Numbered from the stretch's first letter, positions 12,303-29,181 are shown. The stretch: DNA of 32,000 bases from Acaryochloris thomasi RCC1774 (GCF_003231495.1 NZ_PQWO01000034.1:5144-37143); one strand, 5' to 3'. Program-made: numbers and translations. The notes: generated by a model not told the origin, from the sequence alone.

Positions 12303-13661
12303 TTAGACAGTGACCTGTAGTTTCTTCGCCACCTCCGTCAACTCCTCGGTGGAGGACTTCACTTGACTGACTACAGTTGCAGTTTCTTTGGCACCTAAGT
12401 TGATGGCATTCATCGCTGAGACTGCTTGCTGTACACCTACAGCTTGCTGCTTCGAGGTGAGGGCAATTTGTTGGCTGGCGATTGACACATCGTTGACTGC
12501 AGCGGCAATCTCTTGGAATAACGACAGAGTATCTTCGGTCAACTTAATACCGGCATCTGCGGTTTTATTGCCTTCATCAGTTACCATAACCGTGCTGTTA
12601 ATGGAGCCTTGAATTGTGCTCACCAAGGTACCAATTTTGTCTGCAGAACCCCGGCTTTGGTCCGCCAGTTTCCGAATTTCACCGGCAACCACTGCAAAAC
12701 CCTTACCCTGCTCTCCTGCTCGGGCCGCTTCCACAGCTGCGTTTAGGGCCAGCATATTGGTCTGATCTGCGACATCTCCCACCAGCTTCGAGACATTAGA
12801 AATCTGGTCGGTTTGTTCACTCAACTGCATGATCTTTTCAGCAATATCTCCCACCTTGGCTCGTAGGTTGGCAATTCCGTCTAGCGTTTCTTGCACCGTT
12901 TGGCGGCCACTTTCCGATAAATCGAGAGCCTGCTGGGCGCTTGCGGCAGAGGCACCTGCCTGCTGCGCAGCCTGCATCGAAGAAGCACCCAGTTCTTCAA
13001 CTGTCGTTGTCGTTTCATTCACAGAAGCCGTCTGATCAGATACAATTCGGCCTTGCTCTTCCACGGTGGCAGCGATTTGAGAAGAGCTACCCGCTACACT
13101 ACTGGCCGCTGTCTGCAGTGTGCTAGAAGCCCGCTGAATCGTCCAGAAAATAAACGCCAAAACTCCAAGATTCAATAACAAGATGGCGGCCTGAGCAATT
13201 TGAGTTTCACGGACCTGGGCAGCAGAGAATTCTTCTGCTGCAAATACGGCATCGTTGGTCAGCTCAAAGTAGGTTTCACTGTCAGCAATCAGCTTCGGTA
13301 AGATACTGGGATCTTGACGATAAGCGACAACCGTTTGCTTCAATTTTTGCCAAGCATCATTGACGACTGTAATTTTTTCTAGATATTGCGCATCTGTTGC
13401 TTTGGGTAGTTTTAGCTCTGAATTACCATTAATCAAACCCTCGACTAAGGTATCCAGTTTGGCAACGAGCTTGTCGTTCGGTTTACCATTTATTTCTAGC
13501 TTTACCAGTCGTTGGGTCGCACCCCGGACAATCCCGGACTTGTTGACGACACTACCATCCTGTACACCTGTCTGTACCTGAGCTAGCAAATAACCCGTTG
13601 TGCCGACTGCAAAGGTTGCTAGCCCGACGATGGTCCATTGTAGTTGATTGGTAATTTTCAT
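12303..13661 (-). CDS. methyl-accepting chemotaxis protein, PilJ-like periplasmic sensor, no HAMP
   Basis: Two TM segments (res 10-30 and 158-175). The periplasmic segment has [13 protein letters not shown]. The signalling hairpin tip is [32 protein letters not shown]. Only about 10 residues lie between TM2 and the coiled coil. Confidence 0.92.
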
Positions 13662-13722
13662 TGCGTTGCTCCTGTTTGGAATTGGGGTTTGAGGTTACGA
13701 AAAAGGTTTGAAGGATCAGATG

Positions 13723-14835
13723 CTAAGCAGCTTGGTCAACCGTTAGTTGAGCGTTGGAAAAAAGAGCGGACAAATTAAGAATGCTCAAAGTCTTGTCGTT
13801 GTAACGGGCCGTGCCCTGAAAATGCCTCTGGTGGCTTGCAGAGCTAGCTAGCGGGATAGCTGAAATGTCAGTTGGAGAGAGAGACATCACATCAAAAACG
13901 GCATCCACGGGAATACCAGCAATGATGTCGTCAACCTCTACAACAATGGCCTTTGCTGACGGGGCTGCGGCAGGAGCCTGCGTTAACACCGTGCGGAGAT
14001 CCACCAGCGTCATCACTTCACCACGCAAATTCATGTTGCCTACAATGTGTGGAGGACAGCAGGGGATGGGAGTGACCTGCTGCACATTGATAAACTCACG
14101 CACCCTGTCTAACTCCAGCGCGAAGTAATTCTCACCTAAACCAACCACAGCCAAGGAAACCTGATCATTGCTTTCACCCTCTTCCAGGGGTGGCCGCAGA
14201 GCATCCGCGCGTTGCCGAAAGATTGCTCGCTCGGCTGGCGTTACGTTTTGACAGTACAGCTCGTAAAAGTTGCTACCGCTCCGTTCTGAAGTAACACTGG
14301 TCTGCCACTGAGCCTCTGGAGCGGTCTCGGTATTTGACTCAGAAAGTTCAGCCTCCCAGATCATCATGGCAACATCATCGGCCTGCCGAATCAAGGTCTC
14401 AGGGTTGAGTAGAACCACCAGATCAGCCTCTACCTTGGCAACCCCGGCGACAAACGCAGTATTTATCTGCTGCAGTCTGCCGTAATCTGGAGCAGCCTCA
14501 TGATCTGTAGCTGCGATCGTCTGAACATCCAATACCTGATGAACCACGAGGCCCACCTGTATTCCCTGCCACTCAATCACAATGATGCTGTCGCTGAGCT
14601 GGCAGGGCAGCATGGACTGCCCAAGACGCAAGTCTAAGTGCATCACTGGGAGCAGCTTCCCGCGCCAGTTGAGGCTACCGATGATGTCCTTTGGAGCATC
14701 AGCTATGGGCTGGAGTTCAGGCAGATGGAAGATTTCTCGTACCCGAGAAGCTTCAACGCCATAGAGTGAATCACTGTGGCGAAATATTAAGTAGGATTGA
14801 TTGTCTGTATCCATGGGTCTAAGCCTTTCCAGCAA
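13723..14835 (-). CDS. cheW: tandem CheW-domain coupling protein
   Basis: 370 aa with two CheW-like units (YLIFRHSDSLYGVEASRVREI... and YFALELDRVREFINVQQVTPIP...NLRGEVMTLVDLR) joined by an acidic linker. Confidence 0.88.
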   Translation of the reverse strand: MLERLRPMDTDNQSYLIFRHSDSLYGVEASRVREIFHLPELQPIADAPKDIIGSLNWRGKLLPVMHLDLRLGQSMLPCQLSDSIIVIEWQGIQVGLVVHQVLDVQTIAATDHEAAPDYGRLQQINTAFVAGVAKVEADLVVLLNPETLIRQADDVAMMIWEAELSESNTETAPEAQWQTSVTSERSGSNFYELYCQNVTPAERAIFRQRADALRPPLEEGESNDQVSLAVVGLGENYFALELDRVREFINVQQVTPIPCCPPHIVGNMNLRGEVMTLVDLRTVLTQAPAAAPSAKAIVVEVDDIIAGIPVDAVFDVMSLSPTDISAIPLASSASHQRHFQGTARYNDKTLSILNLSALFSNAQLTVDQAA

Positions 14836-14887
14836 AAGTTATCGGCGTGGGCCGTAAAATGAATGACAGTAAACGAGATCGCTAATT

Positions 14888-16021
14888 TCAGACCTTCACT
14901 GCGGTTGATACGTTTTTATCGAGCACCTCAAGCAATTTTTTCTGAGAGATGGGCTTGGTGAGATAATGGGTAGCACCCGCCATCTGTCCCTTAAGTTTGT
15001 CGAACATGCCATCCTTGGCCGTCAGCATTACGATCGGCAAGCTCTGGAACTTACCAAGGCTGCGAATGGTGCGGCACAGTTCTAGGCCGTCAATGTCGGG
15101 CATGGTGACATCCAACAAGATCAGCGACACATCTCTGCGATTGAGGATGTTGAGGGCATCCACTGCGTTGTCGGCCAGTAGCACCTGATAGCGATCGCCA
15201 ATAGCTCGCTTAATCAGGGTTTGCACCACTGGACTGTCATCAACGCTGAGGATAGTGGACTGCTGTGATGCTGCAGACTGAGATGCCTTTTGAGCTATCA
15301 CCTCTGGGCTGTCACAGGTTAACCAGCCCTTTTTACCCCATTGGTAATAGACATGGGCTAATCTCAGTGGATCTTTCTCCATTGCAACCGCAATATCCAC
15401 CAGCGAGTTTTGGCCGTCCACCCACTTTCGTAAATGTTCCGCAACAGAGGCCTCAGCTTGATTGATGTTTAAAGGCTGAGGGACGGACTCAAGGGACGGA
15501 ATGATAGGGGCCAACGCAGACCACTGCTGCTGACGCTGGGTGTAGACTGACAGCAGCGAGTCCCAGCAAAATCCTTGCTGGGACTCGCTGCAGTGGAGGT
15601 CAAACGATCTCTCAACGTTTTGGTTAATCGTTCCTTGGTAGGGAATGAGCTGCTCAAGAACCGCTAAGATTCTTGTTTGCATGAATGCTTGAATATCTTC
15701 CCACTTAAATAATTCAAGGCGAACCAGTAGTTCAAAGTATTCTTGAATTGAGCTGTGATTCTTTGACTTTTTATTCGCCAACTTAATCGCAGAATCCATT
15801 ACCTTAAGCTTGAGCTGATGACCCAATAAAATCGCAAGGTCTTGAGCCGTGATCAGATCTACCCCAGCATAAGTCATCCATCCCTGATGGAAAGCGATTA
15901 CCCGTTTTCTGAGCTGCGTCTGTTGTGGAACTTTAGCCTGGACTGCAATGACACCGCTAAATTTATGACTTCTAAAGCTATTAATAAAATACGGCAGTTG
16001 TTTTGACTTAAATTGTTGCAT
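14888..16021 (-). CDS. PatA/PixG-type response regulator (N-terminal PATAN/DUF4388-like domain + receiver)
   Basis: The C-terminal REC has DD (LSVDDSP), D (LILLDVTMPDIDG), T (VMLTAK) and K (YLTKP). The roughly 240-aa N-terminal domain (FSGVIAVQA...FHQGWMTYAG) is of the type seen in cyanobacterial PatA-family regulators. Confidence 0.85.
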   Translation of the reverse strand: MQQFKSKQLPYFINSFRSHKFSGVIAVQAKVPQQTQLRKRVIAFHQGWMTYAGVDLITAQDLAILLGHQLKLKVMDSAIKLANKKSKNHSSIQEYFELLVRLELFKWEDIQAFMQTRILAVLEQLIPYQGTINQNVERSFDLHCSESQQGFCWDSLLSVYTQRQQQWSALAPIIPSLESVPQPLNINQAEASVAEHLRKWVDGQNSLVDIAVAMEKDPLRLAHVYYQWGKKGWLTCDSPEVIAQKASQSAASQQSTILSVDDSPVVQTLIKRAIGDRYQVLLADNAVDALNILNRRDVSLILLDVTMPDIDGLELCRTIRSLGKFQSLPIVMLTAKDGMFDKLKGQMAGATHYLTKPISQKKLLEVLDKNVSTAVKV

Positions 16022-16439
16022 TTTCTCTACCTCAACTTAAATAATAAGTTTGTCTGATTCTTCACAAAGACAGTCAAAACCTTGAAAAAGGTTTTTTGCT
16101 TATTATTTAATAATATTAACTATCAAGCCTCTAATTCTTTGATTTAAACACCAAAAAGCTAGATATTGTTGCTGATAACTATCTTTCCCAAAATGAAACT
16201 TGATAATCACAGTCTCATAGTTTCCCCTAATGAAGGTAAGTTTGCCATTTCCAATTTAATGAAGCGCTACTAGATGAGGCAGGATTGCATGTTCCTCTTG
16301 GTCTCTATAATTAATGTGCCCATGTAAGAGAACAAGTCTTACTCCAAGACAATCGTAGATTTTTACTTATCGTCTATTTATACGATCGGGCTGCATTGCC
16401 GAGTACCTTGTTGTCATCAATACCTTTCTATTAATTTTC

Positions 16440-16511
16440 TCAAGACCTCCCTATTGTGTTCTTCAATGCATTTCCATGGATTTCTTCAATACTTCTATAG
16501 AGAGGTCTTGA
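16440..16511. repeat. 10-bp perfect inverted repeat with internal TTCTTCAAT direct repeats, just downstream of cheR
   Basis: TCAAGACCTC (16440-16449) and GAGGTCTTGA (16502-16511). TTCTTCAAT occurs twice between the two arms. Confidence 0.5.
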
Positions 16512-16540
16512 AGGACTGCGATACATTGACAGGCTGTTTT

Positions 16541-17953
16541 TCAACTTGCTTGCAGCAGGCATTGACGGAGCTGCATTAATAACTCACCTGCGGTGACCTG
16601 ACCACGATATTCAATCCAGGTTTTAGGCGGTAGCTTTTCTAGCAGTTCCTGAGCAGTGTGGTACATCTTTGTAGCTCTATTTCTTTGGGTATCTTGAGCA
16701 TAGATAGCTCCCAACTCAAAGTAGGCTGGAATATGGGTTGGCTGAAGATAGAGAATTTTTTTGAGGATTGTCTTGGCTTGTTTGTAATCACCCCTCTTCT
16801 GAACGATCTGGGCCATCAAATACAAAGAAGATAGTGATTCCCCGTCAACAAGCAGTGCAGCCAGACAACAATTCATAGCCTGTTCTAGGTTTCCCCGCTG
16901 CCAATGAGATTGAGCAAGTAGATGTTGGGCAGCCCGATCCGTCGTTGAGTTTGAAGTTACCTCATACTGAATCGCCAGGGGTGCTTTGGGCTGAAGTGTT
17001 GAGCTAGGAGAAGTCTCAACTGACCGAGAGAGAGGCTTGGACCGCGGTTCGGCTGTCGCTACAGATTGGGGGCGATAGGCCATTGAGCCTGAAAAACTCA
17101 GTACTTGAAATTGCTGCAGATTCTGGTTGTAAAGCTCAGCATGGCCTGTAATCAGGTAGCCCTTAGGATTTAATGCTGAATGAAGCTTCCTGAGGATTGT
17201 AGCGATCGCATCTGCTTCAAAATAGATGAACATATTGCGGCAGATGATCAAATGCATGGAGCTGAGCAGGTTGTTAGGCACCGGATCGGCCAGCAAATTC
17301 CCTCTGCGAAACGTTACCCGCTCCCGAATGTGGTCATGAATCTGCCAGTTCGCTGACACAGGGCGGAAGTAAAGAGACTTGAGTTGCGGCTCGGTTTGGC
17401 GGAAGGACCAGTTTCGATATAAACCCTGTCGAGCCTTATTAAGCGCCGCCGGATTCAGGTCTGTTCCCAGGATAGAAATCTGCCATCGAGGTAAATCGGG
17501 GATGAGCTCTTGAAGCAGAATCGCTAGCGAATAAGGTTCTTCTCCTGAAGAGCAGCCTGCGCTCCAGAGATTGAGCGTGGGCTGGGGAATTGAACCTGCA
17601 GTATAGGCCTGTCGCTGCTGAGCAATGAGGTCGGGAAGGATGTGCTCTCGCAAAACTTGAAATTGGCCATGATCGCGGAAAAAGTAGCTCTCGCCAATGG
17701 TGACTAACTCAAGAAAATAGTCCCATTCGCGTTTGGCTTCGGATTCGGACTCCGCAAAGGATTTTAATCCGGAAGTCAGATGTTGATAATAAGCCTGGGG
17801 ACTTTCCACGTTGATGAATTGAATCCGATGCATAATATTGTCAGACAGGGTAACCCAGTCCTGAGATCGCAGCCGGATACCAGTTTGGCTCTGGATTAGG
17901 TCTAGAAATTTCTGCCGCAGTGCTGCCTCAATCATAAGATGTCCGATTTTCAC
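16541..17953 (-). CDS. cheR: CheR methyltransferase with C-terminal TPR repeats
   Basis: SAM-binding motif LWSAGCSSGEEPYSLAILL; CheR all-alpha N-domain; C-terminal TPR-like helices (GNLEQAMNCCLAAL..., GDYKQAKTILKKILYLQP...). GTG at 17953, ATG at 17935. Confidence 0.9.
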   Translation of the reverse strand: MKIGHLMIEAALRQKFLDLIQSQTGIRLRSQDWVTLSDNIMHRIQFINVESPQAYYQHLTSGLKSFAESESEAKREWDYFLELVTIGESYFFRDHGQFQVLREHILPDLIAQQRQAYTAGSIPQPTLNLWSAGCSSGEEPYSLAILLQELIPDLPRWQISILGTDLNPAALNKARQGLYRNWSFRQTEPQLKSLYFRPVSANWQIHDHIRERVTFRRGNLLADPVPNNLLSSMHLIICRNMFIYFEADAIATILRKLHSALNPKGYLITGHAELYNQNLQQFQVLSFSGSMAYRPQSVATAEPRSKPLSRSVETSPSSTLQPKAPLAIQYEVTSNSTTDRAAQHLLAQSHWQRGNLEQAMNCCLAALLVDGESLSSLYLMAQIVQKRGDYKQAKTILKKILYLQPTHIPAYFELGAIYAQDTQRNRATKMYHTAQELLEKLPPKTWIEYRGQVTAGELLMQLRQCLLQAS

Positions 17954-18318: not shown

Positions 18319-18729
18319 ATGCCCGAATGGAAACCCAAAATGCATGATGTGGACGCAGCAATCGCCGTAATGACCGAGGCTGAGATCCCAGCTTGCGAAA
18401 AGGCCTATGGTTTCAGTGTCATGCACACAGACCTTGTCAAAAGCTCACGCAACTTTGCCGAATGCGGGTGTGAACATGATGGTTCAATTTCCATGTCCGT
18501 CTACGTTGACGAAATGCCACCAGTGGTCTGGTTCTTTCGATTCGACTTTCGTGAAATGGCCTGCCTGATTACGGAGTCATATCGACGACTCTCATCCAAC
18601 GCATCACGAGCTGAAATCATCAGCCAAATGCGCTTGGTTGATGCGGAGTACAATCACGATGAATTGGACGCAAGAATCAACGAATGGCAAAAGGAGTTCG
18701 AGAGGCGATTTTCGAACGGTACAAGATGA
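18319..18729 (+). CDS. hypothetical protein
   Basis: 136-aa ATG-initiated ORF. No family recognised. Confidence 0.55.
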   Translation: MPEWKPKMHDVDAAIAVMTEAEIPACEKAYGFSVMHTDLVKSSRNFAECGCEHDGSISMSVYVDEMPPVVWFFRFDFREMACLITESYRRLSSNASRAEIISQMRLVDAEYNHDELDARINEWQKEFERRFSNGTR

Positions 18730-18833
18730 TCAAAGTAATGACCTCAGGTGGCTGACCAGCAAAGCCACATAACGAAAACATACGCGGTCGTTTTAGGTCT
18801 GACCTGCCTGGATGCCAACTCTCCGCAAACTAA

Positions 18834-19157
18834 CTCCCCCAATGCTTTGATTGCCGATACCACGACCAGTCCGGCCACCTTGTCTGCGCTATTCATCCCT
18901 CTGGTCCTGAAGGCGATCGCTGTGCTGATTATGTTGAGATCGCTGAAGTTGCGGCGTATGGGCATTGGGTGCCTGAAGGCTGGGCCTTTGAAGCTGGGGA
19001 GGTGCTGCCGATGGCCGTGAGTTATCAATTCCAGTACAATGCTAGCCATCCGATCGTCACTGGGCGTTGTCCTAGGTGTGGGCATGGCTTTAACTTGAGT
19101 GAGTCACGGGTGCATTGGGATTGCCTGAGTCGTGGCTGGAAGGATGACAGCCTCTAG
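18834..19157 (+). CDS. Cys-rich small protein (CxxC...CAIHP...C...CPxCG...HWDC); N-terminal boundary unresolved
   Basis: Own translation of the open frame from 18834: LPQCFDCRYHDQSGHLVCAIHPSGPEGDRCADYVEIAEVAAYGHWVPEGWAFEAGEVLPMAVSYQFQYNASHPIVTGRCPRCGHGFNLSESRVHWDCLSRGWKDDSL. The only canonical in-frame start is GTG at 18969 (listed 62-aa ORF). Paralogous to 3461..3787. Confidence 0.55.
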   Translation, partial: LPQCFDCRYHDQSGHLVCAIHPSGPEGDRCADYVEIAEVAAYGHWVPEGWAFEAGEVLPMAVSYQFQYNASHPIVTGRCPRCGHGFNLSESRVHWDCLSRGWKDDSL

Positions 19158-19220
19158 GGGAATGCTAGCGGTAGCTGTTCAAAGCAATCCCCTGTGGGAT
19201 GATTATACATATCCCTAAAA

Positions 19221-19979
19221 TTGCGAAAAATCAGGTTTAGGCTGTGTCCTTCCTCATCATATGGACAACACAATTGTGAGATGAAACAAGACATTGATCC
19301 GAGCGACAGCCTCAAAAAAATATCGCTTTACACCTTTATCGCTTTTCTATCGATCAGTGCTTTGTTTGCCATCGCTAGCGTATTTACCGGTAGGTTGGGG
19401 GAATTTGAACTCAAGGTCTTGATCACGACCTCTGTTATTGCCATTGCTAGTATTTGTTCCTTGTGTTGTTCCGTCTACTCCAGTCGGATAAAAAATACTA
19501 TCCCCAGTTACACGGGCATTGCATTGGCAGGTTCTTCCGCCCTGATGTTGATACAGGGTGTGTGGGCAGAGACTGGTTCTGAGGGATATTGGAAAACCAC
19601 AGCTACTCTCAGCATTTTCGCATTCGCATCCGCACATTCGCTTGCGCTATTGGCTGTGCGCTTAAGAGTGGAGCACGCTTGGGTTCAGTTAGTGGCAGTT
19701 GTTAACATCTTCATGTTTGCGACTATTCTCTCTGCGACTATTATTGGTGAGATCAGTAGCGATGGGAATGTCAAATTTATCACCATGCTTGCAATTCTTG
19801 CGACACTGGAAACGTTGGTAATTCCTATCCTAGGGCGATTAGTTAAAGGAAATGGCTCTCCAGTGAGAGAAGTTCTATCCCTCACTAAACGAGTAGATGG
19901 AGCCTATGAGGATAAGCATGGATATATCTATGAAGTAAAGAAAATGTCAGGCAAGCCACCAGGAAGCTCTAGGTCATGA
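19221..19979 (+). CDS. polytopic membrane protein (about 6 TM), unknown function
   Basis: Six hydrophobic segments of about 20 aa. The listed start is TTG; ATG at 19281 (MKQDIDPSD) is more likely. Confidence 0.65.
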   Translation: MRKIRFRLCPSSSYGQHNCEMKQDIDPSDSLKKISLYTFIAFLSISALFAIASVFTGRLGEFELKVLITTSVIAIASICSLCCSVYSSRIKNTIPSYTGIALAGSSALMLIQGVWAETGSEGYWKTTATLSIFAFASAHSLALLAVRLRVEHAWVQLVAVVNIFMFATILSATIIGEISSDGNVKFITMLAILATLETLVIPILGRLVKGNGSPVREVLSLTKRVDGAYEDKHGYIYEVKKMSGKPPGSSRS

Positions 19980-20081
19980 TTGATTAAAGGAACTGCAGCA
20001 ATTGCTGGATTTAATTAACAAAAGGCCACTGGTAACTCCACACACCGATTGGATTTGATCTGGAGGATTGCCAAAACTTGA

Positions 20082-21482
20082 TCACCGCAGTGCATCGATC
20101 TCGATTTGCGCCGCTCGTGCCGCCCACCGTTGTCGGCTTGTCCCAAGGAATTCAATTGCTGCTTGGCCTTCAGCAGGATTGCGTTTAGCCACTAAGACAA
20201 TATGTTTATCTAGTCCCCGCAACCTTATCGATTGGTGTTCATCCCAAAAAGCCGAATGAAACGGCAATAAGCTTGGTCGATGGGAAGCGCGCTTTCTGTC
20301 GAGGAAATATAGTACTGAGTTGAATGGCACTGTAATGGGATAAGACAGCAATGACCTCCACCAGGGAAGCGTTAACCCAAGAGCAAGCCCCAGTAAACCG
20401 TATGCCCAGATGGTGACAATAGGTTGCTTTGATTCAAATTCTGCGAACATCAGCGCTGAACTGCAAGAAGCTAAAGCACCAGCAATTGCACCGGCTTTTG
20501 GTCCCGCTATACGCTCAGCTATGGCGTAGGGCAGCAAGTAATAGATACTCAAAAGTAAGCCGGTGCTCACTCCAATAACCGCACCCATTAATCCTCCCCC
20601 CGTAAATTCGTTTGCTAGGCCGAACATCGAATCGAGAGATGTGAGAAGCGCGATTAAGCCGGTCATTGCTCCAAGAATTGCAACAAACACCATGCCGAGT
20701 AATACACTCAAAAGCGTGCCGAATACAAGGCTAGGTCGCCATTTCCCAGTCCGTATGAAGATTACAGCACCGTATGTTGTGTAAAGTATCAGGACAGATA
20801 AGCCGATAAATGAGCTGTAGCTGAAGCCATACCCTGCTCTGATGAGGCCGATCAATATGATGAATGCAGCCAAGCAGAGTGCGATACTGCCTGCGAAGCT
20901 GCCAAGTAAGACTCCCACGACGGTTCCACTGATCTGTCTTGTCAAAGCATTGCTTTTTTTATGGCATTCCATTTGACCCGAAACACCAATAACCACGCCC
21001 GTTGCCACGCCAACAGCTAAACCACCCCATAAACCATTCGTTAGAATTCCGGCCACTCCGCCCGCCACAATACCTGCCACGCTGCTTGCGACCCCAAGAG
21101 CAACACCAAGCCCCATGCCGATTGTAGTTGCAAGTGTAAGACCGCCTACCATACCAGCGATTAAGCCCTGAAACGCTAGCCCGTCCGATATCATCCCGAC
21201 GCTCAAGAAAAATAAAGTAAGTAAACCGCCGGTCAGAAGAGGCACAATGAGATAGCTCTGCAGCAATAGCCTGTATAGAGGAAACCTGCCCCATTGTTTA
21301 AAGCTGACCTCGGCCCAACTAAAGTCAGGCTTTAGCGCCAGATTCATCCGAGTGATGTGATGATGCCATGCGGAAGGCTGTAGGAAGATCCAGAAAAGAA
21401 GCTGGAGACTTCCTAATAGAATGTTAGGATGCTGCTCAGATTTATGACTATAAACATTCTGGGGTATATTCGGTTGTGCCAT
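20082..21482 (-). CDS. glycine-rich polytopic membrane protein (10 or more TM) with soluble C-terminal tail
   Basis: 466 aa, ATG start. Repeated small-xxx-small stretches (GMGLGVALGVASSVAGIVAGGVAGILTNGLWGGLAVGVATGVVIGV). The hydrophilic tail of about 90 aa ends ...QRWAARAAQIEIDALR. Confidence 0.75.
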   Translation of the reverse strand: MAQPNIPQNVYSHKSEQHPNILLGSLQLLFWIFLQPSAWHHHITRMNLALKPDFSWAEVSFKQWGRFPLYRLLLQSYLIVPLLTGGLLTLFFLSVGMISDGLAFQGLIAGMVGGLTLATTIGMGLGVALGVASSVAGIVAGGVAGILTNGLWGGLAVGVATGVVIGVSGQMECHKKSNALTRQISGTVVGVLLGSFAGSIALCLAAFIILIGLIRAGYGFSYSSFIGLSVLILYTTYGAVIFIRTGKWRPSLVFGTLLSVLLGMVFVAILGAMTGLIALLTSLDSMFGLANEFTGGGLMGAVIGVSTGLLLSIYYLLPYAIAERIAGPKAGAIAGALASCSSALMFAEFESKQPIVTIWAYGLLGLALGLTLPWWRSLLSYPITVPFNSVLYFLDRKRASHRPSLLPFHSAFWDEHQSIRLRGLDKHIVLVAKRNPAEGQAAIEFLGTSRQRWAARAAQIEIDALR

Positions 21483-21661: not shown

Positions 21662-22717
21662 CTAATCATCAAACAAAAAGCTCAAACCATCTTCTCCTTT
21701 TCTGTCTGCACGGGCTGTTTCTACGCGCTCCCAGAGCCGTTCATCATCGCGGTAGATTGACATAGCTTGCTCTGCCAGACGAGCCTCTACCTCACTGCCA
21801 CGGGAGATAGTCTCCACAACGTAGTCAAAAGCCTCTGGCAGCCGCAGGAGAGCAATGGCTTCGAACGCAATCCTCTGTCGTTCCTCATCGAGACTGTTCT
21901 CTGCGAATTCTCGCAGTGCATTGAAAGCTAGCAATCGCCGTGAAGATCCCAAGGTAATTGCTGCAACAGAGACTACATCAATATCGGAAGACTCTAGAAA
22001 CTGAGCCACAAACCGAACCGTTTCATCTTCCTCCTCAGAATTATTGGGGGGACCAGATAAGGCAAACAAGACCGAGAAAATTTCTTCTAGAACCCTGACA
22101 TTGAGTTCTCCACTGAGTGCCCTCAATCGGAGCAAAGCGATGGGCGTTGCTCCTGAAAAACAGCTCAGCGCCTGCGCTGCCCCTGCTCTGGCTTCGGTCT
22201 CTGGGTCTGCCAATAGATCAGCGATGTAGAGTAGGGCATCAGCATATCCAGTTTCAGCCAGTGCCACCGCGCATTCAGCTCTGAGTTGAGCGGCCCGATC
22301 TTCTTTGCCACCCCAGACTGCCTCAAACTGTTTGTACCGTATGCCCCGTATGTAGGTGGTCGGTTCATAGGCTTTCAAACGTCGCAAAGCCTTAATGATA
22401 TTCGCCTTTCCTATACAGCCCGGATCAACATTAGCTCCATTGTGGCTTAGTCGTTCGTATGCTTTCAGCATGTCAGGGATGCCATCTTTCCATTCCAGTT
22501 TGGCCGCAATCTTCGCCGCTTTGCCCACAGCAACGCCATGCTTGCTCATGAATCCCCGGCGCAAGGCAAACCACGTCTCTTCATTGGGGGGAGCATCAGC
22601 CAATTGATCTAGTTGCGAAAGGACTGTCTCGATATCGTTTTTTCGCTTTGCCATTGTTTCATCCCGAGCTTGAATGCCCTTGGTTGAACTTATATATTCA
22701 GTCCCCCTTAGTATCAC
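21662..22717 (-). CDS. alpha-helical repeat (HEAT/PBS-lyase-like) protein coupled to umuC, unknown function
   Basis: The GTG at 22717 overlaps the umuC TGA (GTGA); an alternative ATG lies at 22654. Repeat-like units include ADLLADPETEARAGAAQALSCFSG and FLESSDIDVVSVAAITLGSSR. The C-terminus is acidic. Confidence 0.7.
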   Translation of the reverse strand: MILRGTEYISSTKGIQARDETMAKRKNDIETVLSQLDQLADAPPNEETWFALRRGFMSKHGVAVGKAAKIAAKLEWKDGIPDMLKAYERLSHNGANVDPGCIGKANIIKALRRLKAYEPTTYIRGIRYKQFEAVWGGKEDRAAQLRAECAVALAETGYADALLYIADLLADPETEARAGAAQALSCFSGATPIALLRLRALSGELNVRVLEEIFSVLFALSGPPNNSEEEDETVRFVAQFLESSDIDVVSVAAITLGSSRRLLAFNALREFAENSLDEERQRIAFEAIALLRLPEAFDYVVETISRGSEVEARLAEQAMSIYRDDERLWERVETARADRKGEDGLSFLFDD

Positions 22718-24003
22718 CTCACCACCGGCAAATCATCCCACCGTGTCGTATACGCCGGAGTACACTGCTGCCGTCTCATCGCCCACTGCTGAGTGCAACC
22801 CTCACTAGCAAAGAAGACAGCCCTGCGACCATACAGACGATTGAGCTGATCGACAGTATTCATAAGCGCGATCGCCTTCTCGCTGTCCCTTTCTTGAAAG
22901 AGATGCCCCTGCATTGCATTGTCCTGCGAGATATTCAGCAACATCACCCCTGCCTTCGCATACCGTGGCCCTTTTCTGTAGATACGCCTGAGTACTTGCC
23001 CTGCCGCATTGATCAGCTTGCGGGTGTCAGCAGTCGGCATCGCAAACTTGGCTAAGGCCGACTGCGAGTAATACTCTTCATCAGGATTATGCCGTCCAGT
23101 GCGGATGGAAACCTGAATTGCACCACAGACTGAGTTCTGCGATCGCAACTTCTCCGCTGCCTTGGTTGAGTGCATGGCGACAGACTGCAGCAGTGGCTCT
23201 AGCTCTACGACTCGCTCACCGAAGGACCGCGAGGAAATGATCTGCTTCTTTGGCTGTATCTCTTCAACCCCGATGCAGGGCACCCCCCGTAGCTCCATGA
23301 TGATTCGCTGCATCACCACGCTGTATTGTCGCCGCATCGAATCAGGATCTGCATCTCTCAGGTTTTTAGCGGTATGGATGCCAGAGGCTCGGAGCTTCTT
23401 TGATAAGCGCCGCCCAATGCCCCAGATGTCCTGTACCTCGATAGTCTCCAGAACATGATCTAGTGATTCTGCGCTGCCCAGGTTAAACACTCGCCCTGGA
23501 ATCTTCCGCTTTTTACAAACGCGGTTGGCGATTTTGGCTAAGACGCGAGTAGGCCCAATGCCGACAGAGACAGGGATGCCCGTATGCCGTAGGGTTGTAG
23601 CTGCAATCTCGCGGGCATAGGCATCGAGCGAGAGATGACAGAAGCCCGAGAGATCGAGCCAAGCTTCATCGATCGAATAGACTTCTATCTCAGGCGTAAA
23701 TTGCCCCAGCGTATTCATCACCCTGGCTGACATATTTCCGTAGAGCGTGTAATTGCTGGAGACTATCACTGCTTTCATTTCATCAAGCTGATCGCGGATC
23801 TGGAAGTAGGGGGCACCCATCGGAATGCCTGCCTCCTTCAGTTCGTTGGAGCGGGCCACAATGCAGCCGTCGTTATTACTCAAGATCCCGAGGGGCCGTT
23901 TTGCCCATTTAGGCTTGAAAATTCGCTCACAACTCGCGTAGAAGTTGTTGCAATCTACTAAAGCTATCTGTTGCGAAGTTTTAGACAGTTTTTCTAAAGA
24001 CAC
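22714..24003 (-). CDS. umuC: Y-family translesion DNA polymerase UmuC (Pol V catalytic subunit)
   Basis: IALVDCNNFYASCERIF, SIDEAWLDL, and the little-finger region. The start overlaps the umuD 3' end by 23 nt. Confidence 0.92.
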   Translation of the reverse strand: MSLEKLSKTSQQIALVDCNNFYASCERIFKPKWAKRPLGILSNNDGCIVARSNELKEAGIPMGAPYFQIRDQLDEMKAVIVSSNYTLYGNMSARVMNTLGQFTPEIEVYSIDEAWLDLSGFCHLSLDAYAREIAATTLRHTGIPVSVGIGPTRVLAKIANRVCKKRKIPGRVFNLGSAESLDHVLETIEVQDIWGIGRRLSKKLRASGIHTAKNLRDADPDSMRRQYSVVMQRIIMELRGVPCIGVEEIQPKKQIISSRSFGERVVELEPLLQSVAMHSTKAAEKLRSQNSVCGAIQVSIRTGRHNPDEEYYSQSALAKFAMPTADTRKLINAAGQVLRRIYRKGPRYAKAGVMLLNISQDNAMQGHLFQERDSEKAIALMNTVDQLNRLYGRRAVFFASEGCTQQWAMRRQQCTPAYTTRWDDLPVVR

Positions 24004-24409
24004 CTGTGACCACCCCCCAGATCACTAACTCAGACTCCCGAGTGATCCGAATCGGCTTGTACTCCTTGTTCTCTGGCCGCAGCTCTAGCACCCTGCCTTG
24101 CTTGTAGAGTCGCTTAACGGTCAGCTCACCCTCAATGGCCGCAATAACGATAGAGCCGTGTATCGCTTCAACTGCCCTATCAACCACCAGATAATCGCGG
24201 TCAAAGATGCCCGCTTCCACCATTGAATCGCCCGACACCCGCATGAAGAAGGTTGCTGAAGGATGTGCGATCGCAAGGTCGTTGAGGTCGAGATTACACT
24301 CAATGTAGCTATCAGCCGGAGAGGGGAAGCCAGCAGGGACAAGGGAGCTGAGCAGTGGGCGTTCTAGGAGAGATAGACCTTTTAGCTCGTGAATAGATTG
24401 AACTTGCAT
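23981..24409 (-). CDS. umuD: UmuD-like S24 self-cleaving peptidase
   Basis: The cleavage region VPAGFPSPADSY (Ala-Gly), the Ser in VSGDSM and the Lys in LTVKRL are all present. Confidence 0.9.
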   Translation of the reverse strand: MQVQSIHELKGLSLLERPLLSSLVPAGFPSPADSYIECNLDLNDLAIAHPSATFFMRVSGDSMVEAGIFDRDYLVVDRAVEAIHGSIVIAAIEGELTVKRLYKQGRVLELRPENKEYKPIRITRESELVIWGVVTGVFRKTV

Positions 24410-24511: not shown

Positions 24512-24531
24512 GGTATCTATGTACTGAAAGC
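24512..24531 (-). promoter_or_regulatory. candidate LexA/SOS-type operator upstream of umuD
   Basis: The sense strand reads GCTTTCAGTACATAGATACC. AGTACATAGATACC fits the published cyanobacterial LexA-box consensus RGTACNNNDGTWCB at 13 of 14 positions (GTWC -> ATAC). Confidence 0.3.
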
Positions 24532-25121: not shown

Positions 25122-25814
25122 TCAATAATTGATTGCTGGGTAGAGTCTTTGTAGCTTGACTCTGGCCTCCTGGGTTGTGAAGCGCCAGTTAATCCACGTC
25201 CCCTTCTGATTGCGATGGCTATTCCAAGCACTCACCTGCTTTTGTAGGTTTTGAAAATCAGCAATGCGTTGGTCTAAGCATTGGCGAGCAAGAATACTCA
25301 ATTCAATCTCAGCCATATTCAGCCAGCTTCCATGTTTGGGTGTGTAGACAAACTCAAGCCGAGACAAAATCCGTCGAGCTTCTTGTGGAGCAAACGCTTT
25401 GTAGAGTGATGAAGGCGAATGAATATTGAGATTATCTTGAACAAGCGTGATTTGACGGGCCTCAGGATAAAACACATCCACTAGCTCCTTGAGCAGATGT
25501 GCATAATCGAGTGCGGTTCTGCGTTGGGTGACCTTTACATACCGTGCTCCCACTATCGGCTCACATAGCATGAAGAGATTGGCCGTTCCATTACGCTCAT
25601 ACTCATAATCGACACGCTCTGGTTGACCGCGTCGAGCGGCAATGGGGATGGTGATTTCTTTAACCAGTTGCTTGGTGGCTTCATCGAGACAAATTAACGG
25701 GTTTCTCAAGTCATAGGGACGCTCATAGACGGCTAAGATCTCCTCCATACGCCAGACAAACTCTGCATTCTGATGCGGTGGAATTACCCAACAAGTCTTT
25801 CGCCAAGGTTGCAA
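25122..25814 (-). CDS. IS630 transposase OrfB (DDE catalytic domain), expressed by -1 frameshift from OrfA
   Basis: OrfB is in the -1 frame relative to OrfA. Slipping on CTA AAA AAA A gives ...TLKKNALQPWRKTCWVIPP, the usual IS630 junction. DDE candidates: LICLDEAT, VQDNLNIH, NMAEIE. Confidence 0.85.
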   Translation of the reverse strand: MQPWRKTCWVIPPHQNAEFVWRMEEILAVYERPYDLRNPLICLDEATKQLVKEITIPIAARRGQPERVDYEYERNGTANLFMLCEPIVGARYVKVTQRRTALDYAHLLKELVDVFYPEARQITLVQDNLNIHSPSSLYKAFAPQEARRILSRLEFVYTPKHGSWLNMAEIELSILARQCLDQRIADFQNLQKQVSAWNSHRNQKGTWINWRFTTQEARVKLQRLYPAINY

Positions 25815-26254
25815 TGCATTTTTTTTAGCGTTCCTCGGACGGTTTCATAACTGAGGTGGTCGATGTAGCCTAATTCGACCATTTGGTCGGCGAGTAATCG
25901 CAGTGTCCAGCGAGCATGGCCGACCGGCGGTTCGCTACAGCGTAAGGCAATCAGATGAGCTTCTTGCTCTCCCTGCATTTTTCGCTTGCGACCTGAACCA
26001 GAGCGTTGATTGATGGCAGCATCAAGGCCTTCTTCAACGAATCGCTGACGCACCCTCTCAATGGTTCGAACACTTACGCCTATCGCGTCATGAATCTCTC
26101 TATCACAGCAACCGCCACTGGCTTGGTTAACATCGGCTTTGAGGAGAATACGGGCATGATTAATCTGCCTAGCCCCCCGTCTACCAGTTGTAATGAAGGT
26201 GTGCAGGTGCTGTTGCTCTGCATCACTCAGGGCGACAATATAGCGTTTGGCCAT
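25784..26254 (-). CDS. IS630 transposase OrfA (HTH domains)
   Basis: N-terminal helix-turn-helix/winged-helix region. The ORF ends shortly after an A8 tract (T8 on the plus strand, 25819-25826). Confidence 0.85.
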   Translation of the reverse strand: MAKRYIVALSDAEQQHLHTFITTGRRGARQINHARILLKADVNQASGGCCDREIHDAIGVSVRTIERVRQRFVEEGLDAAINQRSGSGRKRKMQGEQEAHLIALRCSEPPVGHARWTLRLLADQMVELGYIDHLSYETVRGTLKKMHCNLGERLVG

Positions 26255-26343
26255 TGGGCTATCCCAGAATGCATCAGGACCATTCTACAAATAAACCCGT
26301 CAGTCAATACTTGACTCAATACTAGTAAATTCTACAGTAGATA

Positions 26344-26375
26344 AACTACCCCGCCCTTTTTGAGATGGGGTAGTT
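26344..26375. terminator. hairpin between the IS630 end and the exonuclease gene (possible terminator)
   Basis: AACTACCCC (26344-26352) pairs with GGGGTAGTT (26367-26375). T-rich sequence follows on the plus strand. It lies 57 nt downstream of the minus-strand stop at 26432. Confidence 0.4.
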
Positions 26376-26431
26376 CATCTGCTCAGTTTTGGATTTTTTA
26401 CGCTTCCTTGCCGCAATATCTAGCTGAGCAC

Positions 26432-27571
26432 CTATGTCTTTGGCATTTGATAGAGAGGAATCCAGCCCCTTTGATACCAGTTGTACTGTTCGGCCACTGG
26501 CTGCATAGCCTCAATATGAGGCTTTGAGATCCCTCGCTTGAGTAAATCTGTTCGAGGCATGATATCTGCCGGACGGCTGCTTTTGCTGTAGTAGCGAGGT
26601 GGGTAGCGATCCATAATCTCCTTAGGCTGTTCCACGGCGTAAAGCAGCCGAAACACCTTGCCAGATTTAGAGAGATAGTAAGCATCAGGATTCAGTTCCT
26701 CACGTATCCAAGGCATGTAATCCTTGAAGAAGCTGAAGGGCTTCAGATCGTCTGGTATATTTTTCTGGAGTCGATAGCTGGGCATGTCAGGGTTTTTCGA
26801 GATGTTTTGCCACGCATCGTATGGAAATCCCGTAAATACCTTTGTATACAGATTAAGTCGCTCCCATTCAGATTGCCTGCAGCTTCCACCTGTCCACTCC
26901 GAGTATTTTAGCCAGCGCATCCAAAAGTCGGACATGCGTTCTTGATAGCGGCGCTGGTTCCGTTGCGTTCTCCACTCCATCTCCCGTAGCTCTGCCTTTG
27001 CGATCGCGCTTGCCTCTCTATCGGCGCGAATAGCGGCGACTCTGGCTTTTTCAGCATCTTCGGTCAAGTATTGCCAGACGGCTCGACAGGCTAGAGCGTC
27101 GGTCAGAGCGCGGTGAGAATCCCCAGACCATTGGTGATAAACGCGCTGCGCTGCAACTGCCAGAGACTGCCAGCGGTAGTTGCCCCAGTAATCCGACCAG
27201 TCCCCATAATCTTCAGCAAACGCTTCTATGCAGCAGCTTATGGACGCAGCTTTCGCTAGCTCAGCTCCTAAAAAACCGGACTCGAAATCAGCATTATAGA
27301 TGACCACGTTTTGCCCGAATAGCAGATTAATAATCTGAGGTCGCAGCTCGTCTAATGTAGGAGCAGTCGTTATGTCATCTGGACTGATACCGTGAATCGC
27401 TTGGGCCTCGGGCCAGCTTTCGTTGTGCGTTGGCCTCACTAGAGTATTGAGCAGGGGCTGGTCGCTGTCATCTGCGATCGCAATTTCTAAAATCTCATCA
27501 TCGGGTGGGTAGAGGCCGGTGGTTTCGATGTCGAGATAAAGGTAAGTTATCGGATGTCCTGTAGTGTCCAT
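26432..27571 (-). CDS. DEDDh 3'-5' exonuclease (DnaQ/epsilon-like) fused to an unknown C-terminal domain of about 190 aa
   Basis: Exo I YLDIETTGL, Exo II VIYNADFESGFL, Exo III HRALTDALA. The C-terminal half is Trp/Tyr/Arg-rich with no recognised family. Confidence 0.85.
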   Translation of the reverse strand: MDTTGHPITYLYLDIETTGLYPPDDEILEIAIADDSDQPLLNTLVRPTHNESWPEAQAIHGISPDDITTAPTLDELRPQIINLLFGQNVVIYNADFESGFLGAELAKAASISCCIEAFAEDYGDWSDYWGNYRWQSLAVAAQRVYHQWSGDSHRALTDALACRAVWQYLTEDAEKARVAAIRADREASAIAKAELREMEWRTQRNQRRYQERMSDFWMRWLKYSEWTGGSCRQSEWERLNLYTKVFTGFPYDAWQNISKNPDMPSYRLQKNIPDDLKPFSFFKDYMPWIREELNPDAYYLSKSGKVFRLLYAVEQPKEIMDRYPPRYYSKSSRPADIMPRTDLLKRGISKPHIEAMQPVAEQYNWYQRGWIPLYQMPKT

Positions 27572-27625
27572 GATTTCCTATTCCTCATACATTCGACGGT
27601 GTACATGAGGCCGCACAACACCTAG

Positions 27626-28855
27626 CTATCCGGCTCTTGACGCCTCAGCTCTTGATGCCCCAGCTCCCGATGCCCCAGCTCCCGATGTCTCAGCGCCTGA
27701 CCATCCAAGCGCCCTTTCGTACAGAGTTTCGTAGAGCAAGTATTTGCTCTCTCCCTTGAGCTTTGCGGGCGATCTCAAAACCTCAACCTCATTTGAGAAA
27801 GCATCGGTATTGAAAGTGTCAACCGCCAGAATGCCAACTTCTTGATGAGCTTCAGGCACAACAGTCTGGACTGCATCGATCAGCTCCTCATTTTCTGCTG
27901 GAACTGCGAAGCAGAAGTAGTCACAGAACTGGAGGTACAGCGGCCACTTCTGATCATGTTCAAAGTCCGCTAGGGAACTTTTGATTTCGACACCAAAGAC
28001 TTCCTTGGGTCTTTTATTACTCCACCGGATTACGCTCACATAATCCAGCCGCAGCCGCTTCTTTCGGTGGCTGACCCTCACCTCTGTATGAGCAACATAA
28101 TGCTTCGGTGGGTAGCGCATTCCAGCACAGCGTTTAGTCCAATCAACTAGAGTAAAAGAGAGAGTTTGTACAATGTTTTGTGCGACCGCCCCAGGGGGCA
28201 TTGATCCGGTCGTCATCAATCCTGTGACTGCTTCTCGGATTGCCACGGGACTAATACCAATACTAGAGATGTCGTTAGTCGCAAGGCTGCTAGTCGTGAG
28301 GTCGCCGTCTGCAAAGCTACTGTCTGCAGAGCTGCTGTCTGTAGAGCCACTGCCCTGAGAGTTCTGTCGCCCAAGATGCTCATAGGTTCCCTCACTTCCT
28401 GCCGGTGGCCGTCCCCTCCGGTTCTCAGACTCAGGCTTGTACTGCTTTGCCATATCACGACATTCTCGAACTGTCGCCATTCCCGCCAATACTTTGTCTT
28501 TCAGCCCTTGAAAAACAGGCTTGGGTGCATGTCGCTCTACCTTCTCAAGGTTTACGAGCGCTTCTGGAGCGGCCAACGCAGAATCGATCTGCTCAATGCT
28601 GTCGCTCTCGATCGTTCGTAAATAATATTTTCCGGCTTTGATGTACCTCCAGATTAGTGAGCGCTGGCAGTCACACCGCTCAGCCATCTGCTGTACCCAG
28701 GCGGTGAAAGATAGACCAGACTGTTGGTAGAGTTTGTCCTCACGAACCGCGATCGCAATTTTCGCTACCTCTTGCCAGTTCGAGCGGTTGCGCTCCAACA
28801 GTGCCTGGATATCATCCTCAGCTCTAGAGAGCCTCTCGTAGCAATTTTGACTCAT
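27626..28855 (-). CDS. two-domain protein: N-terminal DNA-binding-like helical domain, Ser/Asp-rich linker, C-terminal MmcB-like PD-(D/E)xK nuclease domain
   Basis: The C-terminal RLDYVSV...VFGVEIKSSLADFEHDQKWPLYLQFCDYFCFAVP matches my recollection of the MmcB/DUF1052 pattern (D...EIKsS.aDF..D.KW..Y..fCD.F.FAVP). The N-terminal WQEVAKIAIAVRE...GLSFTAWVQQMAERCDCQRSLIWRYIKAGKYY is HTH-like. Confidence 0.75.
   Translation of the reverse strand: MSQNCYERLSRAEDDIQALLERNRSNWQEVAKIAIAVREDKLYQQSGLSFTAWVQQMAERCDCQRSLIWRYIKAGKYYLRTIESDSIEQIDSALAAPEALVNLEKVERHAPKPVFQGLKDKVLAGMATVRECRDMAKQYKPESENRRGRPPAGSEGTYEHLGRQNSQGSGSTDSSSADSSFADGDLTTSSLATNDISSIGISPVAIREAVTGLMTTGSMPPGAVAQNIVQTLSFTLVDWTKRCAGMRYPPKHYVAHTEVRVSHRKKRLRLDYVSVIRWSNKRPKEVFGVEIKSSLADFEHDQKWPLYLQFCDYFCFAVPAENEELIDAVQTVVPEAHQEVGILAVDTFNTDAFSNEVEVLRSPAKLKGESKYLLYETLYERALGWSGAETSGAGASGAGASRAEASRAG
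27629..27703 (-). repeat. five tandem 15-nt units encoding a pentapeptide-repeat C-terminal tail
   Basis: Plus-strand units: tccggctcttgacgc / ctcagctcttgatgc / cccagctcccgatgc / cccagctcccgatgt / ctcagcgcctgacca. They encode WSGAE-TSGAG-ASGAG-ASRAE-ASRAG. Confidence 0.8.
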
Positions 28856-29181
28856 GGTCTTGTTTAATCTATATGACTAGACTAAATGAAGTAAAATTAC
28901 TTTGTCAAACTTACGTTGTTTCGCTCAGGTCACCTTGCTCAAGTAGTCTAGAAGTAAGGATATTGAGGGCGAAAGCACCGCTGCTTTGTAATGAGAAATG
29001 TCAGTAGGAAGACATGGAACGAAACGATCAATGCCATTGGCAAGGGACAGAGCGTTGACACTGAGAAGGGAGATATCCGGTCTCAAAATTACTTCATCTT
29101 TGAAATCTTTGGGGTTGCCGTATAAAAAATCAGGGGAATGCTTCCTTTCTCGTGCCCTCAAGAGTTAATGCAACAAAACCA

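Follow-up and report, generated by a model that had tools for sequence, protein, structure and literature searches.

The stretch of DNA analysed in this study, hereafter termed the window, comprises 32,000 nucleotides (nt) of Acaryochloris thomasi RCC1774, and all coordinates are counted from its first letter. Here we describe two open reading frames (ORFs) on the minus strand of the window, namely gene 1 (27626-28855; 409 amino acid residues, aa) and gene 2 (26432-27571; 379 aa), which are separated by 54 nt. Both ORFs were proposed in an initial annotation made from the sequence alone, of which the coordinates and lengths were exactly reproduced. Gene 1 encodes an N-terminal DNA-binding-like domain (N-domain), a disordered linker, and an MmcB-family PD-(D/E)xK nuclease domain, and the protein is identical to the A. 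thomasi GenBank entry "hypothetical protein C1752_10977". Gene 2 encodes a DnaQ-like DEDDh 3'-5' exonuclease followed by a family-specific C-terminal domain (C-domain), and the protein is identical to the A. thomasi GenBank entry labelled 'DNA polymerase III PolC-type'. The 3'-5' polarity of gene 2 is assigned from the characterised members of the DEDDh family. The two proteins represent known enzyme families in new architectural variants, and each family already has entries in the databases. The main new facts are that an operator-like palindrome is found family-wide upstream of gene 1, that the C-domain of gene 2 is rare and confined to its family, and that the pairing of the two genes is lineage-specific.

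The spacer between the two genes (27572-27625, minus strand; 54 nt) carries a Shine-Dalgarno-like GAGGA (27582-27586) 10 nt before the ATG of gene 2, and no terminator was called in it by a terminator scan. A stable hairpin (26336-26383, minus strand) lies 49 nt past the stop codon of gene 2, with the arms at 26336-26352 and 26367-26383, a folding energy of -27 kcal/mol, and a z of -6.2. This hairpin, initially placed at 26344-26375, is thus real. It bears no T-tract and is therefore not a canonical intrinsic terminator, and it is probably the 3' end of an operon. We ruled out that the hairpin is a repeated element, as it occurs only once in the window. Because the two genes are on the same strand, with a 54-nt gap containing GAGGA, no terminator between them, and a strong hairpin past gene 2, they probably form one small operon and would be co-transcribed. 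The candidate promoter ahead of gene 1 (28881-28908, minus strand) was read from the sequence and comprises a -35 TTGACA box (28903-28908), which had already been pointed out, a 16-nt spacer, and a weak -10 element, TTTAGT (28881-28886). A consensus promoter scan did not call a promoter upstream of gene 1, the best -10 being only TTTAGT. Three HIP1 octamers (GCGATCGC) were found within the two genes (27000, 27474, and 28749), and the whole window contains 12 against 0.46 expected. The argument that the three sites reflect a long residence in a cyanobacterial genome is thus a reasonable one.

Gene 1 matched the Pfam family MmcB-like (PF06319) with an E-value of 8e-10 and 39 bits (cut-off 22) over aa 283-354. 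The AlphaFold model of gene 1, built from 38 homologues with a mean pLDDT of 82, contains a nine-helix N-domain (aa 1-140), a low-confidence linker (aa 163-216), and an alpha/beta C-terminal domain. In the Foldseek search against PDB, the best match was 3DNX (SPO1766; E = 4e-6, TM-target 0.62), followed by PaqCI and BamHI, and the nuclease domain also resembles the fold of MspJI. The gene 1 family profile found 3DNX by sequence as well (E = 4e-7). In the profile alignment (LRLD...VEIKSS...DF..D.KW..YL.FCD), the catalytic residues match LRVD...IECK of 3DNX. The residues D271, E290, and K292 are intact in gene 1, and the E and K are kept in 36 and 35 of the 38 family members, respectively. As the profile, the D...E-x-K residues, and the restriction-endonuclease-like fold all agree, gene 1 belongs to the MmcB-like family (PF06319, formerly DUF1052), with which it shares the PD-(D/E)xK fold and the signature D...ExK...DF..D.KW..Y..CD. 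Altogether, the MmcB-like PD-(D/E)xK assignment made in the initial annotation was upheld, together with the helical N-domain and the disordered linker, and a failure of the catalytic residues to align, which had been named as a ground for refuting it, was not observed for gene 1. The gene, now annotated as 'hypothetical protein', can be named as an MmcB-family nuclease.

The nuclease domain of gene 1 corresponds to aa 221-385 (27701-28195, minus strand; D271 and E290-x-K292). In contrast to 3DNX, which is a single-domain protein of 153 residues, gene 1 adds a conserved helical N-domain of 140 aa and a disordered linker of approximately 75 aa. The N-domain (aa 1-141; 28433-28855, minus strand) is all-helical and highly conserved in the family. 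No Pfam match was found for this domain, and its fold bears a weak likeness to the DNA-binding domain of KorB (PDB 1r71, probability 0.6). A word-index search with the N-domain only returned three fragments and nothing else. We propose that the N-domain binds the operator described below. The linker (aa 145-220; 28196-28423, minus strand) is rich in Ser, Gly, Thr, and Asp (20% Ser, 13% Gly, and 7% Asp) and contains a 15-nt tandem repeat at 28307-28352. Past aa 385, there is a disordered tail with GAGAS-type repeats, coded by 15-nt repeats at 27633-27687. The two sets of 15-nt tandem repeats, with approximately three copies each, are expansions located only in the disordered regions.

The full architecture of gene 1 was found in approximately 76 protein clusters, nearly all of which are cyanobacterial, and several of the cyanobacterial homologues have already been named 'MmcB family DNA repair protein' by NCBI. 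The same architecture was detected in a plasmid protein of Flammeovirga (Bacteroidota) with an hhalign probability of 99.6%. Two full-length homologues (P0070 and P0071, in the loci L023 and L024, respectively), which belong to a chromosomal clade of Pseudanabaenaceae and other cyanobacteria, have A-A-R in place of E-x-K and E in place of D. These sequences suggest that a DNA-binding or regulatory function may have been kept after the loss of the nuclease activity. A homologue of approximately 50% identity on a 1.68-Mb metagenomic contig (L192:7986-8963) appeared to be a pseudogene beside transposases, in which a 196-aa N-terminal fragment was called and the rest is out of frame.

Gene 2 matched the Pfam family RNase_T (PF00929) with an E-value of 1e-12 and 49.3 bits (cut-off 24). 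The exonuclease domain (aa 8-170; 27062-27550, minus strand) carries D14, E16, E97, H153, and D158. The DEDDh set had been described as complete, and this description holds for D14, E16, H153, and D158, which are invariant in the family, but not for the ExoII catalytic Asp, which is Glu (E97) in gene 2 and likewise in its closest homologue, against Asp in 48 of the 52 family members. This Asp-to-Glu change is conservative, and gene 2 belongs to the DEDDh/RNase_T exonuclease superfamily (PF00929). In the AlphaFold model (pLDDT 94), the exonuclease domain is followed by a long connecting helix of approximately 50 residues (aa 172-220; 26912-27058, minus strand) and a compact alpha/beta C-domain of approximately 160 aa modelled with high confidence (aa 222-379; 26435-26908, minus strand). 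The fold matches were DNA polymerase III (Pol III) epsilon (2IDO and 2GUI), the DinG exonuclease domain, the DnaQ domain of S. thermophilus, and TREX1, and gene 2 also matched phrog_192 'DNA polymerase exonuclease subunit' (6e-34). Gene 2 shares with the DnaQ/Pol III epsilon-type exonucleases the fold, the ExoI/II/III motifs, and the DEDDh histidine, but differs from them in the ExoII Glu and in the extra long helix and C-domain. Furthermore, gene 2 scored 42.5 bits against 222.7 for the dnaQ equivalog TIGR01406 and 41.6 against 196 for PRK05711, and it is far below every dnaQ and polC equivalog cut-off of NCBIfam. We regard the GenBank label 'DNA polymerase III PolC-type' as a mislabel. The only polymerase gene near gene 2 is umuC.

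The C-terminal region of gene 2 was initially described as W/Y/R-rich and impossible to place, and both points were borne out. The proportions of W, Y, and R are 4.6, 7.7, and 9.3% in the C-terminal half, against 3.2, 4.9, and 4.9% in the N-terminal half, and neither the Pfam search with the C-domain nor the search of its profile against the PDB sequences gave a match. Foldseek searches with the whole model against PDB and BFVD did not identify the C-domain, as the alignments span the exonuclease half only. In a profile search of 1.84 billion representative proteins, only 83 clusters with the C-domain were found, nearly all of which have the layout of exonuclease plus C-domain or are fragments thereof. 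An alignment of the two halves of the C-domain was obtained with hhalign (E = 2e-4, probability 45%), and the C-domain may be an internal duplication of a unit of approximately 50 aa. We also considered an XPA_C-like identity of the C-domain. None of 25 C-domain sequences matched XPA_C (PF05181), and the second repeat aligned with an approximate XPA fragment with an hhalign E-value of 0.019 and a probability of 2%; this likeness is too weak to claim. The C-domain is thus rare and confidently modelled, and it occurs on enterobacterial conjugative plasmids, in some cases near umuDC.

When the regions upstream of the gene 1 homologues were aligned, a palindrome became apparent, of which the core is TCTAGT-NN-ACTAGA (TCTAGTNNACTAGA). 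It often extends to AATCTAGTTAACTAGATT, and its consensus can be written as TCTAGTTAACTAGA. A TATAAT-like hexamer often lies directly before the palindrome. The exact TCTAGTNNACTAGA was found in 13 of 20 distinct gene 1 loci, always approximately 12-57 nt ahead of the start codon, on plasmids as well as in chromosomes and down to a protein identity of 37%, and the palindrome occurs once or twice per locus. No match with one mismatch or less was found in 1.63 Mb of control loci. In the window, the copy O1 (28868-28881, minus strand; TCTAGTCATATAGA) has two mismatches to the core, lies 12 nt before the ATG (13 nt to the A), and shares one base with the -10 candidate, the last of the hexamer. The second copy, O2 (28939-28952, minus strand), has two mismatches as well, and O1 and O2 flank the TTGACA -35 box. 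At the stringency of two mismatches, four palindromes were found in the window against 0.86 expected. At the corresponding position, the Flammeovirga homologue bears two copies of another perfect palindrome (TTACTATAC-N4-GTATAGTAA). The two nuclease-dead homologues in L023 and L024 retain the perfect palindrome. As the 2-nt spacer forbids an RNA hairpin, the palindrome is a putative protein-binding DNA site. Gene 1 is the sole component common to all of the loci with the palindrome, and thus the simplest reading is that the gene 1 protein would repress its own transcription via the N-domain.

Controller (C) protein-regulated restriction endonucleases and the KorA/KorB operator control on IncP plasmids are known autoregulation systems. 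The gene 1 family is similar to them in combining a short perfect palindrome at the promoter or start of a nuclease gene with a helical DNA-binding module. The predicted DNA-binding module of gene 1 is fused to the nuclease, unlike the separate C proteins, and a cognate methyltransferase is lacking; in sequence, the operator is distinct from those of KorA/KorB. The operator and the N-domain are predicted to be a small, well-defined repressor-operator pair portable across cyanobacterial plasmids, and could serve as a genetic part.

Two loci have a second perfect palindrome away from the start of the gene 1 homologue. In a metagenome-assembled genome (MAG) of Pseudanabaenaceae, this copy (L023:775-788; AATCTAGTTAACTAGACT) is found between tRNA-Ser(tga) and tRNA-Ser(gga) in an array of at least seven tRNA genes (L023:64-1002), at a distance of 6 kb upstream from the gene 1 homologue. 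It is directly followed by a tRNA-like sequence ending ...GGTTCGATTCCACC...CCA. On a circular-looking metagenomic plasmid contig of 41.5 kb, the copy (L010:9332-9345) lies 15 nt past the stop codon of gene 1 and is followed by TATATAAT and then by an IS630-type element. The latter copy may be a remnant of a separately regulated downstream partner.

The genomic contexts of the two families agree with the association with mobile elements suggested initially, as the relatives of gene 1 occur on plasmids and islands and those of gene 2 on conjugative plasmids. Gene 1 relatives are often on cyanobacterial plasmids or islands, with ParA and/or ParB within 0.5-4 kb in four loci, integrase genes or their fragments nearby in five (L001, L003, L010, L017, and L028), a MobC/relaxase pair near one, and PriCT_2 primase-helicases near three. 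We rejected gene 1 as a plasmid replication initiator, since the plasmids concerned carry large PriCT_2 or DUF3987 primase-helicases. The chromosomal clade of Pseudanabaenaceae and other cyanobacteria, mostly represented by MAGs, has gene 1 between the genes for malic enzyme and epimerase/M15 peptidase in at least four genomes, and two of its members have lost E-x-K. Genes of the phospholipase D family were seen near two gene 1 relatives. One, PLDc_2 (Nuc-like), is just upstream of the closest relative (L009:5053-5919), and the other is approximately 2 kb upstream of the Flammeovirga homologue (L191:3904-4338).

Full-length homologues of gene 2 were found on approximately 28 enterobacterial plasmids, and on conjugative plasmids of this kind their neighbours include DnaB, Hha, H-NS, and a tyrosine recombinase. 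A contig of Halomonas (Vreelandella) carries a full-length homologue with a DnaB-type helicase and IS605-family genes. Other full-length relatives adjoin AbiEii or are surrounded by metabolic genes, the latter on "viral" and metagenomic contigs. A phage origin was considered and rejected. IMG/VR yielded no gene 1 relative, and what was found in cultured phages was limited to fragments of the MmcB domain or N-domains of the exonuclease. Full-length homologues of gene 2 are present on two IMG/VR contigs, where the genes around them are not replication genes. Membership of a known phage replication or recombination cassette, which would have spoken against the initial proposal, was checked and not found.

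In the window, umuD and umuC (22714-24409, minus strand) are approximately 2 kb downstream of the nuclease pair, from which they are separated by an IS630 element and a Nif11-domain gene on the minus strand. The IS630-type ORFs (DDE_3 and HTH; 25122-26254) lie downstream of gene 2, and both neighbours were found as initially noted. The E. coli plasmid pLD91-1-76kb (L012; NZ_CP042584.1, 46607-52289) carries umuDC together with a full-length gene 2 homologue 2.8 kb upstream of it, and umuDC was found within 8 kb of exonuclease relatives in three further loci (L036, L065, and L128). The plasmid pLD91-1-76kb is of the conjugative MOBF/MPF_F type, with a tyrosine recombinase between the gene 2 homologue and umuDC, and with Hha, H-NS, and DnaB nearby.

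Considering the operon layout, the recurrent adjacency of endonuclease and exonuclease (see below), and the presence of umuDC near this pair and some gene 2 relatives, we tentatively favour, as a possibility well short of probable, that the two genes are an autoregulated nick-and-resect DNA-processing operon of mobile-element origin, possibly feeding gap filling by the adjacent UmuDC. Gene 1 would be an MmcB-type endonuclease tethered by the flexible linker to the helical DNA-binding domain, and the autorepression would hold this potentially toxic nuclease at a low level. The endonuclease would incise DNA at a lesion or an abnormal structure, and the exonuclease encoded by gene 2 would then resect from the exposed 3'-OH. 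The resultant gap would be filled by repair or translesion synthesis, plausibly by UmuD'2C encoded approximately 2 kb downstream on the same strand. We infer the sequential action of the two enzymes and the damage-processing role. The PD-(D/E)xK endonuclease MmcB of Caulobacter is induced in the SOS response, gives protection from mitomycin C, and has been hypothesised as a partner of translesion polymerases (PMC9578287), and the mechanism proposed here mirrors the role suggested for it. On the other hand, the gene 1 family differs from Caulobacter MmcB in having its own palindromic operator, not an SOS box, and in being mostly plasmid- or island-borne in cyanobacteria. With the extra N-domain and linker and no LexA-box-like site upstream, gene 1 is not taken as a functional equivalent of the single-domain, SOS/LexA-regulated Caulobacter protein. 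If the operon works as proposed, an MmcB-type endonuclease would have a dedicated 3'-5' exonuclease as its partner next to a translesion polymerase, and the system would offer a handle on the processing of cross-links and adducts by the MmcB family, which has so far been hypothesised only for Caulobacter.

Several observations weigh against this favoured reading. We examined approximately 22 distinct gene 1 loci including the window, with flanks of up to 10 kb per side, several of which were short or cut. For gene 2, hmmsearch was run over four looked-up or plasmid loci (L006-L008 and L012) and 160 scan loci with exonuclease-domain relatives. No gene 1 relative was detected near the gene 2 relatives in any of approximately 170 loci by tblastn and the family hidden Markov model. 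Gene 1 is lacking upstream of the nearest gene 2 relative (58% identity); in L190, no gene 1 relative was found, and an ORF on the reverse strand lies upstream instead. The nearest gene 1 relative with a readable downstream region (64% identity; L189) is followed by an unrelated gene of 275 aa, and the locus of the closest relative (78% identity) is cut by the contig end. The tightly linked gene downstream of gene 1 varies across the loci and can be an HNH nuclease, an SNF2 helicase, a weakly XPA_C-like protein (the 275-aa protein, 22.3 bits against a cut-off of 25), a small membrane-like protein, or none. As for the regulation, both operator copies in the window are degenerate, with two mismatches each, and the -10 element (TTTAGT) ahead of gene 1 is weak. 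No LexA-box-like site was found upstream of gene 1, and the LexA-box patterns were not above chance, so that SOS regulation of gene 1 was rejected. Approximately 100 nt upstream of umuD, the site AGTACATAGATACC (24512-24525) differs from the Anabaena-type LexA box RGTACNNNDGTWCB at one position and could plausibly be the SOS operator of umuDC, but sites matching this well are no more frequent in the window than chance predicts. Finally, the association with umuDC is mild and could reflect shared cargo of mobile elements.

The linkage of an endonuclease with an exonuclease remains to a degree. Among approximately 21 other gene 1 loci, a DEDDh exonuclease adjoins gene 1 in two, namely the plasmid pCYAN10605.01 of Cyanobacterium aponinum (84 nt upstream of the gene 1 homologue, same strand) and a MAG of Crocosphaera (91 nt upstream, divergent). 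These two exonucleases are 45% identical to one another and 31-36% identical to gene 2, and have an N-terminal extension without the C-domain of gene 2. Thus, all three DEDDh genes found in the examined flanks of gene 1 are its direct neighbours (gaps of approximately 55, 84, and 91 nt) and represent two exonuclease lineages. The absence of adjacent homologues elsewhere, which had been given as a ground for refuting the initial proposal, was nearly what we found, with none of approximately 170 gene 2 loci and two of approximately 21 gene 1 loci, the latter with a different exonuclease. Altogether, the pairing is lineage-specific, not a conserved two-gene system, and each gene comes from its own rare mobile-element family. 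The 'module' of the initial annotation therefore stands in the domain calls and the association with mobile elements, but not as a defined two-gene module for recombination or defence.

We regard it as somewhat unlikely, yet deserving of serious weight, that the two genes are independent cargo, that is, unrelated accessory genes of mobile elements made neighbours here without cooperation, with gene 1 as an autoregulated unit and gene 2 as a stand-alone plasmid-type exonuclease. Each family overwhelmingly occurs without the other, the full-length relatives of gene 2 are in unrelated contexts (the plasmids with DnaB, Hha, and H-NS, AbiEii, and metabolic genes), the gene downstream of gene 1 is highly variable, and the adjoining IS630 shows local rearrangement. 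What speaks against mere cargo is the tight 54-nt spacing on the same strand without a terminator or a separate gene 2 operator, and the DEDDh exonucleases directly adjoining gene 1 in two further loci and never lying elsewhere in the examined flanks. The variable partners could also be understood if cyanobacterial mobile elements carry, in the gene 1 family, a self-repressed 'anchor' nuclease standing first in a plug-in operon whose second, DNA-processing gene is interchangeable. Such operons would constitute a new modular family for defence or DNA-damage processing. The effectors would be the DEDDh exonuclease with the novel C-domain here and the HNH, SNF2 helicase, and XPA_C-like proteins elsewhere, and the nuclease-dead chromosomal members would be domesticated regulators. 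We searched for a domain shared among the differing downstream partners and found none. We consider this plug-in arrangement rather improbable.

A role in defence or competition between elements, in which the self-repressed restriction-like nuclease recognises foreign DNA and the interchangeable partners (exonuclease, HNH, or SNF2 helicase) finish the destruction, appears unlikely. The gene 1 family is patchy, rare, and mobile, with some loci near Abi, CRISPR-Cas, NERD/UvrD, and methyltransferase genes, and a constant first gene with a variable DNA-processing second gene recalls modular defence operons. The palindromic operator on a nuclease gene recalls the controller-protein control of restriction enzymes, the nuclease domain resembles the folds of PaqCI, BamHI, and MspJI, and the exonuclease domain matches the DEDDh (1e-26) and PDC-S48 (1e-22) models of PADLOC. 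The PDC-S48 match is, however, limited to the exonuclease half of the model; aa 10-217 of gene 2 align to the positions 6-212 of 411, and the C-terminal half of the model is unmatched, so that gene 2 does not qualify as a full-length member. No mention of PDC-S48 was found in the literature searched. Gene 1 has no meaningful PADLOC match, no methyltransferase is adjacent, and one gene 1 clade is stably syntenic (malic enzyme/epimerase, at least four genomes) with two catalytically dead members. The phage collections give no hint of an arms race, with no gene 1 relative in IMG/VR and fragments in cultured phages. The neighbours in the window are chemotaxis, redox, umuDC, and IS genes, and PADLOC gave exonuclease-domain matches for the pair and, for the neighbours, only two weak matches, to HEAT-repeat/OloA (21662-22717) and to Cas2 inside the AraC-family gene. 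A defence-island context was thus rejected, and the typing of the pair as a defence system in the initial annotation was not supported by this neighbourhood scan. We also discarded gene 2 as a CRISPR-associated DEDDh protein of the Cas2-DnaQ type, since the match is at the domain level only (PDLC01247, 1e-26) and no cas gene is present in the window, where the weak Cas2 match (E = 5e-4) is the sole match to a Cas model. Typing as a recombination module fared no better, as no annealing-protein or 5'-3' exonuclease partner was found among the neighbours. The pair resembles lambda Red Exo/Bet and RecET as a mobile-element-associated nuclease pair, but those systems combine a 5'-3' exonuclease with a single-strand annealing protein, whereas gene 2 is of the 3'-5' DEDDh type. 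Very unlikely, in our view, is a function in plasmid replication or maintenance, with gene 1 as a KorB/ParB-like regulator or a site-specific partition nuclease and gene 2 as an epsilon-like proofreading subunit. The neighbouring ParA and/or ParB (four loci, 0.5-4 kb) and PriCT_2 primase-helicases (three loci), the weak resemblance of the N-domain to KorB, the phrog_192 match of gene 2, and the presence of DnaB at 2-3 kb from the gene 2 homologue in each of three related elements would fit such a function. Nevertheless, genes for replication or partition are absent from the window, the loci have one or two operators each and not a regulon or a centromere-like array, gene 2 is far under the dnaQ equivalog cut-offs, and the chromosomal gene 1 clade has no plasmid context.

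The surroundings of the pair showed no compositional anomaly across the window, and no integrase or replication gene was found among the window ORFs scanned. The IS630-family element consists of two overlapping ORFs, HTH_32 (25784-26254) and DDE_3 (25122-25814), inserted between the hairpin past gene 2 and the Nif11 gene; without it, umuDC would be approximately 1 kb downstream of the pair. No clear terminal inverted repeats were seen for this element, and its segment was rejected as a part of known plasmids, as there was no match in PLSDB. On the upstream side of the pair, there are an anthrone-oxygenase-like gene, an NAD-binding gene, and an AraC regulator. Four ORFs of 136, 113, 252, and 466 aa (18319-21482), with no Pfam or PADLOC match, lie between a CheR-TPR gene and a HEAT-repeat gene adjoining umuC. 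A complete chemotaxis-like cluster occupies 8141-17953 on the minus strand and comprises CheB, a response regulator, a CheA-type hybrid kinase, MCP, CheW, a PatA-like response-regulator-domain protein, and CheR-TPR, being of the kind usual for cyanobacterial taxis/motility loci.

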